From NCBI RefSeq assembly GCF_054482595.1, contig NZ_CM137008.1: a DNA stretch of 64,000 nucleotides. One strand, 5' to 3'. Below are positions 27,501-30,500 of this stretch, one piece after another. The stretch's first letter is position 1, and every line of letters begins with the position of its first letter. Made by a program: the position numbers.

Positions 27501-30500
27501 TAAAACTGGCGCGGAAGTAAAACGTCAGGATATCGAATCCAATCTGCAATATGACGCGGGCGATAAAGGTATTTACCGTCACTACATGCAGAAAGAGATC
27601 TACGAACAGCCGAACGCGATCAAAAACACCCTTACCGGGCGCATCAGCCACGGTCAGGTTGATTTAAGCGAGCTGGGACCGAACGCCGACGAACTGCTGT
27701 CGAAGGTTGAGCATATTCAGATCCTCGCCTGTGGTACTTCTTATAACTCCGGTATGGTTTCCCGTTACTGGTTTGAATCGCTGGCAGGTATTCCGTGCGA
27801 CGTCGAAATCGCCTCTGAATTCCGCTATCGCAAATCTGCCGTGCGTCATAACAGCCTGATGATCACCTTGTCACAGTCTGGCGAAACCGCAGATACCCTG
27901 GCGGGCCTGCGTCTGTCGAAAGAGCTGGGTTACCTTGGTTCACTGGCAATCTGTAACGTTCCGGGTTCTTCTCTGGTGCGCGAATCCGATCTGGCGCTAA
28001 TGACCAACGCGGGTACAGAAATCGGCGTGGCATCCACTAAAGCATTCACCACCCAGTTAACTGTGCTGTTGATGCTGGTGGCGAAGCTGTCTCGCCTGAA
28101 AGGTCTGGATGCCTCCATTGAACATGACATTGTGCATGGTCTGCAGGCGCTGCCGAGCCGTATTGAGCAGATGCTGTCTCAGGACAAACGCATTGAAGCT
28201 CTGGCAGAAGATTTCTCTGACAAACATCACGCGCTGTTCCTGGGCCGTGGCGATCAGTACCCAATCGCGCTGGAAGGCGCATTGAAGCTGAAAGAGATCT
28301 CTTACATTCACGCTGAAGCCTACGCTGCAGGTGAACTGAAACACGGTCCGCTGGCGCTGATTGACGCGGATATGCCGGTTATCGTTGTTGCGCCGAACAA
28401 CGAATTGCTGGAAAAACTGAAATCCAACATTGAAGAAGTTCGCGCGCGTGGCGGCCAATTGTATGTCTTCGCCGATCAGGATGCGGGTTTTGTAAGTAGC
28501 GATAACATGCACATCATCGAGATGCCGCATGTGGAAGAGGTGATTGCACCGATCTTCTACACCGTTCCGCTGCAGTTACTGGCTTATCACGTCGCGCTGA
28601 TCAAAGGCACCGACGTTGACCAGCCGCGTAACCTGGCAAAATCGGTAACGGTTGAGTAATATTATTCATTTGCTGAACGAAGGGCTGCCTTTTGGCGGCC
28701 CTTTTACTTACCAGCATTAATAATCTAACCTCATTCCATATAATTAACTTCAGCTATTATTTGGGGCACCGTTGAACACTTGTTTTAACCGTAGTAGTAA
28801 TTAAATACCTCGAATCATTGACAAACAATTGCCATAATTGACGTACTTTGTAATGAATAGCACGTTTTGTTCATTCAAGAATCGCTTGTAAAACAATCAT
28901 CAATATGTAATTTTATTTAACTATGTAACAATGTGTGATAATAAATTATCACTGTAAATATATAGTCTTTCCACAAATATAGGCAAAAAATATAATTTGA
29001 ATGTGTGGTTTACTAAAAATAAGACTGTTTTCTACGCAAATTCATAGTTGTGGATTATGTAAATATGAAAAAATTGTCTGCTTTGAGATGTGTGATATAA
29101 TTAAAAAATCACCTCATCATAAAAATAATATTTATATCCATTTATTATTCCCTCTTCTTTTAAGCAATCACATAACGATATAAATTTAGTTTTGCTTAAC
29201 ACCCAATTTAATTTATCTAAATGTATAAAATAAAAACCACTTGCGCCAAAGTATATTGGTAGTACTATTTGGTTTCTGATCAAATACCGATCAGGTTTAT
29301 CCAAATTTAATAAATGGATAACACACAGGAATAATATCAAATTAATGGAGTTATATTTATGAAACCAAATATGATTGTAGGAGCATTAGCGTTAACTTCT
29401 GTGTTTATGGCAGGTCACCTACAGGCGGCTGATGGAACAGTCCATTTCCGTGGTGAAATTATTGACAGTACTTGCGAAGTCACTCCTGAAACTAAAGATC
29501 AGGTCGTTGACTTAGGCAAAGTAAACCGTACAGCCTTTAGTGGCGTCGATGATGTGGCTGCCCCGACGGCTTTTTCTATCGATCTGACTCAATGCCCGGA
29601 AACCTTTAAGTCCGCCGCAATTCGTTTCGATGGTAATGAAGATGCTCATGGTAATGGCAACCTGGCAATCGGTACCCCGCTTGATAACTCTAACGATGCT
29701 GCCGCTGGTATTAGCCCGAGTGATAACAGTGGGGATTATACTGGTGCGGGTGCCGTTAGTGCAGCGAAAGGCGTAGCTATTCGTTTATATAACCGTGCAG
29801 ATAACACTCAGGTCAAGTTATATGAAAATTCTGCATCAACTCCGATTTCTAATGGTAATGCATCCATGAAGTTCATGGCTCGTTATATTGCTACGGAAAC
29901 GACTATTGACCCTGGTACAGCTAACGCCGACTCGCAGTTTACAGTTGAATATATAAAATAAATCATTCTTAACATAATACCTTAAATAAAATGGCGCTCG
30001 CCATTATGGTTCTCTTTTACTTAAAAGAAGGGCGTCATTATTATATTTTTATGAGATACATTTATGCCTATGTATTTACTTAGATTGTTTTTTGCTGTTA
30101 CTTTGATTACGCAGATGTCGATGGCTATGGCTGGTATTGTTGTTGGGGGAACTCGCGTTATTTTTTATGGTGACAAACCTGATACTACAATCTCTATTTT
30201 TAATAAAGAAACGAACCTTCCTTATCTATTGCAGACATGGGTTGATCCATTTAATAAAGAGGATAAAAGCAAACCGCCATTTTCTGTGATACCTCCCGTT
30301 TCTCGCATTGAACCGCAGCAAGAGAAAATATTACGCATTTTAAAAACGGCTGGCGAGTTACCAAAAGATCGAGAGTCCGTATTCTGGTTGAACGTGAAAA
30401 ACATCCCTCCTTCAATTGATAAAAAAAATACCAATGTTCTTGAGATAGCCATAAAAACAAGAATTAAGTTATTCTGGCGACCAGCCGCGGTAAAGATAAT

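Follow-up and report, generated by a model that had tools for sequence, protein, structure and literature searches.

The A/T-rich leader of the lpf2 fimbrial operon at the glmS-pstS site of Escherichia coli

A/T-rich leaders are typical of fimbrial operons, and H-NS is established as a protein that binds and silences A/T-rich DNA of horizontal origin by preference. The leader considered here lies between glmS and lpfA2, the first gene of the long polar fimbrial operon lpf2 of Escherichia coli, in a stretch of 64,000 nucleotides from contig NZ_CM137008.1 (NCBI RefSeq assembly GCF_054482595.1). That entire 64-kb stretch is referred to below as the window. The leader is a typical xenogeneic one, ordinary for a fimbrial operon, and is rather likely to be an A/T-rich, partly curved target of silencing by H-NS and StpA, with two sigma-70-type promoters that are modulated by environmental signals.

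The closest described system is the lpf2 regulatory region of E. coli O157:H7, where the operon is referred to as O-island 154 (OI-154). It was described by Torres et al. 2004 and Arenas-Hernandez et al. 2014, both as cited in PMC4288034. Earlier work has described the lpf2 locus, placed it between glmS and pstS, and reported on its environmental regulation. For example, Lpf2 expression is induced by bile and rises four-fold at pH 6.5 (PMC6313751), and lpfA2 is upregulated in MacConkey broth via lactose and/or bile (PMC3046156) and in simulated ileal conditions (PMC5357955). An approximately two-fold negative effect of RpoS has been reported for the same gene, designated z5225 (PMC2907692). 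The locus in the window is the same one: its spacer is 99.1% identical to those of O157:H7 strains EDL933 and 86-24 across all 699 bp and has the same flanking genes. It differs from O157:H7 in its non-O157 background, in six leader substitutions relative to 86-24, in an lpfB gene that is intact rather than split, and in a nonsense codon in the first lpfD-like gene.

The lpf1 operon (OI-141) of O157:H7 likewise has an A/T-rich leader upstream of long polar fimbrial genes on an O-island. In PMC4288034 and PMC5357955, lpf1 is described as silenced by H-NS and de-silenced by Ler, and the same mode of control, xenogeneic silencing, is expected of lpf1 and lpf2 (PMC4288034). In contrast to lpf2, lpf1 has a different locus and sequence, outside the window, and binding of H-NS and Ler has been demonstrated for lpf1 only. 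Also unlike the lpf1 case, the lpf2 leader is found in strains that are probably without Ler.

Leaders of the Salmonella stg operon, the E. coli lpf-O113 operon and their relatives resemble that of lpf2 in a low content of guanine plus cytosine (GC) and, in Salmonella, Kluyvera, E. ruysiae and lpf-O113, in their position after glmS. They share with it a core promoter, a stem-loop that follows the -10 hexamer, and a Shine-Dalgarno (SD) block. In contrast, a distal promoter and a block at 28857-28871 are common only to an lpf2-like subgroup, and outside the conserved blocks the stg/lpf-O113 and related leaders do not align with that of lpf2.

Composition, curvature and probable silencing

The 699-bp glmS-lpfA2 spacer occupies positions 28660-29358 of the window. 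Because it is nearly identical to the O157:H7 locus and is flanked by genes annotated in RefSeq as glmS and lpfA2 (the latter under the name "long polar fimbria major subunit LpfA2"), it is the leader of the lpf2 (OI-154, Stg-type) chaperone-usher operon between glmS and pstS. A preliminary description of the window had placed an A/T-rich feature at 28710-29358, between genes that it called glmS and lpfA. Both its coordinates and its gene calls are confirmed by NCBIfam and by the RefSeq annotation of strain XH990, a urine isolate of 4.88 Mb whose spacer is 100% identical and whose chromosome differs from the window at two positions in 50 kb. The principal features are as follows.

26830-28659: glmS (TIGR01135, E = 2.9e-270; RefSeq annotation of XH990 agrees)
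28712-29358, no strand: A/T-rich non-coding leader of the lpf2 operon, GC ~0.27
28950-29100, no strand: segment with phased A-tracts, predicted to be intrinsically curved, immediately upstream of the distal promoter
29359-29961, + strand: lpfA2, major fimbrial subunit, first gene under the leader (NCBIfam PRK15289, E = 2.7e-107)

GC is 0.268 in 28710-29358 and 0.280 in the entire spacer, compared to ~0.52 in the flanking genes and a mean of 0.476 ± 0.078 for all 649-bp segments of the window. The first 50 kb has 17 annotated intergenic regions that are 100 bp or longer, among which the spacer has the lowest GC and is also the longest, except for an unannotated stretch inside another island; core spacers in the same 50 kb mostly range from 0.35 to 0.47, with one at 0.31. 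Measured in 100-bp windows, GC stays below 0.40 throughout an unbroken run of 658 bp (28734-29391), and 28710-29358 contains 20 A/T-only runs that reach 8 nt or more as well as 14 A or T homopolymers that reach 4 nt or more. Such a composition is not unique to the leader, as an equally A/T-rich tract occurs in the island at 40.3-47.2 kb.

The leader encodes no protein and no known RNA family. Its only two open reading frames (ORFs) of at least 60 amino acids (aa) have no Pfam match and are broken in closely related alleles: the one on the + strand at 29001-29183 loses its ATG in O157 and other alleles (29002 T>A), while in strain LSU61 an 11-bp deletion shifts the frame of that on the - strand at 29101-29340. 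Both were rejected as genes for these reasons. A 13-codon ORF at 29221, spotted by eye, was also rejected, since it is without an SD sequence and its ATG is ATC in the allele L011. Rfam covariance models gave no match to either strand of 28400-29600 at E ≤ 1, and in none of the 354 genomes found to carry the spacer does RefSeq annotate a feature under it. Thus, the extreme A/T-richness and lack of a convincing ORF noted in the preliminary description both hold, as does its view of the tract as the non-coding regulatory leader of a fimbrial operon that appears to be horizontally exchanged.

The same description had regarded the DNA as curved. A wedge model predicts a curvature of 12-17 degrees per turn over 28950-29100, versus a window mean of 5.0, with a peak of 18 degrees per turn at 29021 that falls in the 99.97th percentile of the window. 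This curvature is a model prediction, and 2% of composition-matched shuffles reach the same peak. The place of the segment relative to the distal promoter is a familiar one, as DNA immediately upstream of a promoter is a classic position for a bend.

Base composition and shape are the main known determinant of H-NS binding, and on the strength of composition and predicted curvature the lpf2 leader is probably silenced by H-NS. In the proposed mechanism, 73% A+T over ~650 bp, combined with a predicted bend upstream of the distal promoter, would make the leader a high-probability nucleation site for H-NS (and StpA). From there, an H-NS filament could extend over the two promoters and onward into lpfA-lpfB, a segment that is still A/T-rich, and would hold lpf2 silent during standard culture. 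For expression, conditions or factors would be needed that either relieve silencing or activate the promoters; the signals reported for lpf2 are bile salts, a pH of 6.5, low iron and exponential growth at 37 °C. Ler could serve as an anti-silencer in strains that are positive for the enterocyte effacement locus (LEE), but it cannot be a general requirement for lpf2 if the window strain is without LEE.

Several points weigh against silencing by H-NS. The motif prediction proposed as a check in the preliminary description did not bear it out: the best match to the H-NS 10-mer (TCGATAAATT-like) is 9/10 at 29210-29219 on the - strand, which 16.5% of dinucleotide shuffles equal, and TpA steps in the leader are not enriched beyond base composition. 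Because motif matches are at the level of shuffles and TpA follows composition, the case for H-NS rests on base composition and predicted shape. As for shape, the curvature estimate depends on the wedge parameters used, and the shuffles mentioned above apply. In addition, the predicted bend coincides with the least conserved part of the leader, since 28971-29054 accounts for 14 of its 30 differences from another allele (L005); this argues against a sequence-specific role there. The promoters through which silencing would act have predicted starts, and the choice of promoter in use is inferred. Finally, the literature consulted contained neither H-NS occupancy data nor results from hns mutants on lpf2, and the lpf2 locus is not mentioned in the supplements of an H-NS chromatin immunoprecipitation study of enterohaemorrhagic E. 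coli (EHEC).

Origin of the operon and variation of its leader

The lpf2 operon is not present in K-12. Homology with that strain breaks off at the glmS stop codon and is regained within the pstS promoter, at ~35627, with a block of ~7 kb standing in place of ~200 bp of K-12 spacer. The replaced sequence includes the K-12 glmS terminator, whose place is taken by another:

28679-28711, + strand: glmS intrinsic terminator, 11-bp stem GAAGGGCUGCC / GGCGGCCCUUU followed by a U-rich tail

The terminator, which the preliminary description had already recognized, has a predicted hairpin (28679-28704) of -23 kcal/mol (z = -4.6, with 0 of 200 shuffles as stable), and the hairpin is kept in part in lpf-O113 and E. 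ruysiae leaders. A terminator scan of 28600-29450 reported none, although folding clearly shows the glmS hairpin. The conserved 3' end of glmS is also the recognition site of Tn7 (attTn7), with insertion ~25 bp past the stop codon. That point would lie in the 5' arm of this strain's terminator (28660-28711), and no Tn7-like element is present at 28660-28711.

The spacer was matched in 354 of 5426 complete E. coli genomes at an identity of at least 95.7%, and in all 354 it aligns in one piece. In another 1981 E. coli genomes, the same site is occupied by the lpf-O113 operon. This operon is ~65% identical in lpfBC, and its leader of 301-305 bp has no BLAST alignment with the lpf2 leader past the terminator region. 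Homologs of LpfA2 are encoded directly downstream of glmS in Salmonella (59-78% amino acid identity), Kluyvera and E. ruysiae, and more are found in Citrobacter, Enterobacter and Pseudocitrobacter. The glmS-pstS site therefore looks like an old hot spot with allelic replacement. With the operon missing from K-12 and two alleles distributed as above, "horizontally acquired", the term used in the preliminary description, is, judging from these comparisons, a fair one.

Leaders at this site vary in length from 301 to 1238 bp, yet their GC is 0.19-0.35 in every allele and genus examined. Low GC has thus been maintained and is no accident of a single strain. Between E. coli alleles, the leader diverges by 4.3%, compared to 1.7% for glmS and 0.3% for lpfA2. 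The window leader is colinear with, and ~60% identical to, those of the lpf2-like alleles L011, L012 and L007. The search of genome contigs for homologous leaders yielded nine loci only, and a metagenome scan returned only near-identical copies of E. coli lpf2, hence no further divergent leaders.

Promoters, regulator sites and the stem-loop

A scan for sigma-70 consensus sites is uninformative by itself, because it returned eight sites versus 5.0 ± 2.7 in shuffles. Promoters were therefore accepted only if conserved across alleles. On that basis, two sigma-70-type promoters are conserved among divergent alleles, a distal one ~250 nt and a family-wide core one ~85 nt before lpfA2. These and the other elements of the leader are listed below.

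28857-28871, + strand: far-upstream conserved block ATAGCACGTTTTGTT, a candidate regulator binding site
28935-28952, no strand: perfect 18-bp palindrome GTGATAAT-AA-ATTATCAC, read directly from the sequence
29074-29101, + strand: distal sigma-70-type promoter with an extended -10 (TTGTCT, 16-nt spacer, TGaTATAAT)
29241-29268, + strand: core (proximal) sigma-70-type promoter (TTGCGC, 16-nt spacer, TACTAT)
29275-29295, + strand: stem-loop UCUGAUC-AAAUACC-GAUCAGG, beginning 7 nt past the -10 hexamer and holding the leader's only two GATC sites
29347-29361, + strand: SD sequence GGAG and lpfA2 ATG; AATGGAGT...ATGAAA is invariant or nearly so in 12 alleles

The distal promoter matches the consensus at 10 of 12 positions in addition to its TG extension, and its predicted start near 29108 would give a 5' untranslated region of ~250 nt. 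TGaTAnnnT is kept in six lpf2-like leaders that are ~60% identical, five of which also keep the -35 TTG and the spacing. The core promoter has a predicted start at ~29274-29278, 81-85 nt before the ATG. Its G-TAnTAT block is found in 16 of 17 loci searched, spanning Escherichia, Salmonella, Citrobacter, Enterobacter and Pseudocitrobacter, at 74-130 nt (mostly 82-102 nt) before the ATG. In most loci, inspection of the sequences by eye showed a -35 TTG at 16-18 nt, while lpf-O113-type leaders have TTAGAT in its place.

As a side observation, the 10-mer ATGTGTGATA occurs twice in the leader, at 28931-28940 and 29088-29097, 157 bp apart. In the distal promoter, the extended -10 is formed by the second copy, while the first, which overlaps the Fur-like palindrome, also resembles an extended -10 (TGtGATAAT).

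Farther upstream, the block ATAGCACGTTTTGTT occurs in every lpf2-like leader at 472-502 bp before the ATG, including alleles that are only ~60% identical, and in two alleles it forms a TAGCA-N5-TGCTA dyad. A single match to it in the window is not unusual in itself. Comparison by eye with a sigma-54 -24/-12 element was also made and rejected, as the spacing is 2 nt too short. Further conserved blocks are evident at 29180-29235 in a multiple alignment of lpf2-like leaders.

These blocks bear on whether most of the tract has any function. Allelic replacement at glmS-pstS could have left functionless A/T-rich filler, in which case only the last ~120 bp, from the core promoter to the ATG, would matter. 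The wide range in leader length, with lpf-O113 managing on 301 bp, would fit such an explanation, as would the excess divergence of the leader over both neighboring genes and its hypervariable patch. Filler would not be expected, however, to keep elements at fixed positions up to 500 bp upstream (the distal promoter, 28857-28871 and 29180-29235) in alleles of ~60% identity, or to be low in GC in every allele, and we consider this explanation improbable.

Specific regulators, rather than H-NS, could instead dominate control of lpf2, with A/T-richness being incidental. For instance, Fur bound at the 28936-28951 palindrome or at the A/T-rich 29118-29136 would repress lpf2 in iron-replete conditions, and a bile- or pH-responsive activator would bind the conserved 28857-28871 block, whose position and sequence have survived in alleles of ~60% identity. 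Such control is compatible with silencing by H-NS. As cited second-hand in PMC4288034, lpf2 expression involves bile salts, iron and Fur. The core of the 18-bp palindrome, TGATAAT-AA-ATTATCA (28936-28951), has the 7-2-7 form of a Fur 7-1-7 half box, with a spacer of 2 nt instead of 1 nt. The palindrome is unchanged in the four E. coli alleles compared but not conserved in Salmonella-like alleles, and, being confined to E. coli lpf2, is a candidate site for the Fur effect that has been reported. The 7-1-7 model aside, no Fur box better than chance was found in the leader: the best match to the 19-bp box is 13/19 (a fraction of 0.505 of shuffles do as well), and the best to three NATWAT repeats is 16/18 (0.24). 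Moreover, an independent study contradicts the Fur report in finding z5225 not to be regulated by Fur (PMC4382993). Dominance by specific regulators is a possible but, in our estimate, doubtful account of the leader.

Downstream of the core promoter, the stem-loop at 29275-29295 has a predicted stability of -10.3 kcal/mol (z = -3.0, with 0 of 200 shuffles as stable) and is the most stable 36-nt fold within the 644-nt leader. In 8 of 14 alleles, a stem-loop at the equivalent place is among the top 2.5% of windows despite differing sequences, and in five to seven Salmonella-like alleles it is followed by UUUUAUUU, resembling an intrinsic terminator. The substitution 29293 A>G in two alleles keeps the pair as G-U. 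Covariation is suggested and not formally demonstrated, because RNAalifold returned no consensus on an alignment of the post -10 segment. The 268-nt RNA of the long leader also folds better than shuffles (z = -3.7 to -4.0), and in E. coli alleles the SD sequence and AUG are predicted to pair with 29117-29150 in its 5' part.

From these features, the leader might work mainly at the RNA level or via transcriptional interference, and the tandem arrangement of two conserved promoters speaks for this. In one form of this explanation, transcription that begins at the distal promoter would pass over the core promoter and halt or pause at 29275-29295, causing attenuation or promoter occlusion. In another, the stem-loop would be a 5'-terminal hairpin that stabilizes lpfA mRNA made from the core promoter. 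Several findings run counter to this explanation. In the window allele, only a weak U-tract (GUUUAUCC) follows the stem-loop, and the terminator scan reported none. The pairing that sequesters the SD sequence is not conserved in L011, L012 and L007, where z ranges from -0.8 to -3.4 and the partners are different. Furthermore, the stem starts 1-3 nt after the -10 hexamer in several alleles, and so is not fully within the core-promoter transcript of those alleles, and the lack of RNAalifold consensus and of any Rfam family has been mentioned. On the whole, a leader that works mainly in these ways seems rather unlikely.

An extension of this idea to the entire Stg/Lpf2 family would make the two-promoter leader a switch based on interference or attenuation, tuned by H-NS and environmental signals, in which distal transcription occludes the core promoter and ends at the start-site hairpin. 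If true, such a switch would set fimbrial expression. To our knowledge, no such mechanism has been described for chaperone-usher fimbriae, and we regard the proposal as a long shot.

Two further RNA-level observations were made. Positions 29266-29276, just past the core -10, are perfectly complementary over 11 nt to 29361-29371, which comprise lpfA2 codons 1-4. In addition, the 102-bp spacer between lpfA2 and lpfB (29962-30063, GC 0.28) contains a G+C-rich stem-loop at ~29990-30040 (z = -2.2 for a 116-nt fold), which may represent the attenuator that usually follows the major-subunit gene of a fimbrial operon.

The possibility of phase-variable expression, also raised in the preliminary description, did not survive comparison with the known switches. 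Like the lpf2 leader, the fimS and pap switches are non-coding control regions before a chaperone-usher major-subunit gene, and in lpf2, as in fimS, an inverted repeat brackets the promoter. The 13-nt arms of this perfect repeat (29135-29147 and 29308-29320, with 160 bp between them) enclose both the core promoter and the stem-loop, and 2.4% of shuffles reach a repeat of that length. The two GATC sites, moreover, are close to the transcription start. The leader might on these grounds be taken for a phase-variation switch, either an invertible promoter element or one of the Dam/Lrp methylation type. A query for the inverted junction, however, found it in 0 of 354 genomes, and the two separate halves were in reference orientation in all of them. 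The leader contains no recombinase-sized ORF and none that is PapI-like or PapB-like, its flanks being glmS and lpfA2, and the inverted repeat is not conserved in other alleles. A pap-type switch has two GATC sites ~100 bp apart in two Lrp sites, along with papI/papB-like regulators; here, the GATC pair is 11 bp apart in the arms of one hairpin and is not conserved. The fimS-type invertible element and the pap-type switch were both rejected on this evidence. As far as sequence can tell, the two known types of fimbrial phase switch are excluded, and it is extremely unlikely that the leader is a switch of either kind.

Surroundings of the locus and significance of the leader

Following lpfA2, the operon consists of genes for a chaperone, an usher and two or three LpfD/StgD-like subunits, and is followed by pstS. 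The lpfB gene is intact in the window (228 aa) and split in O157:H7 strain 86-24. The first LpfD/StgD-like gene (33318-34409) has an in-frame stop codon at 33882-33884 that divides it into two ORFs, of 188 aa and 170 aa. Of the two differences from XH990 in 50 kb, one falls at 33883, and the XH990 copy is annotated as intact.

Additional A/T-rich DNA occurs elsewhere in the window. Stretches at 56381-58441 have a 649-bp GC down to 0.30, and a second, larger A/T-rich island, with GC down to 0.25, lies between phoU and yieH (40341-47241). RefSeq annotation of the latter is limited to a pentapeptide-repeat protein encoded on the - strand (43801-44988), one hypothetical protein (~800 aa, 45289-47697) and a pseudogene fragment, so that 2.9 kb (40900-43800) is without annotation. 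At least 80% of this island stretch is found in 1054 of 5426 E. coli genomes, and K-12 has the bgl operon at the same site. At 14410-14780, between mioC (14045-14488) and mnmG/gidA (14867-16756), there are 18 GATC sites in ~370 bp, the position and signature of the chromosomal origin oriC.

What the present analysis adds to the described lpf2 locus is a map of conserved elements, namely two promoters, an upstream block and a stem-loop, along with the exclusion of inversion-type phase variation. The map and the negative result on inversion are useful detail and offer concrete targets for reporter and footprinting work, while leaving the overall picture unchanged. Lpf2 has a role in intestinal colonization and in targeting of Peyer's patches by EHEC and other pathogenic E. 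coli. Since Lpf2 contributes to colonization, how it is switched on matters for pathogenesis.

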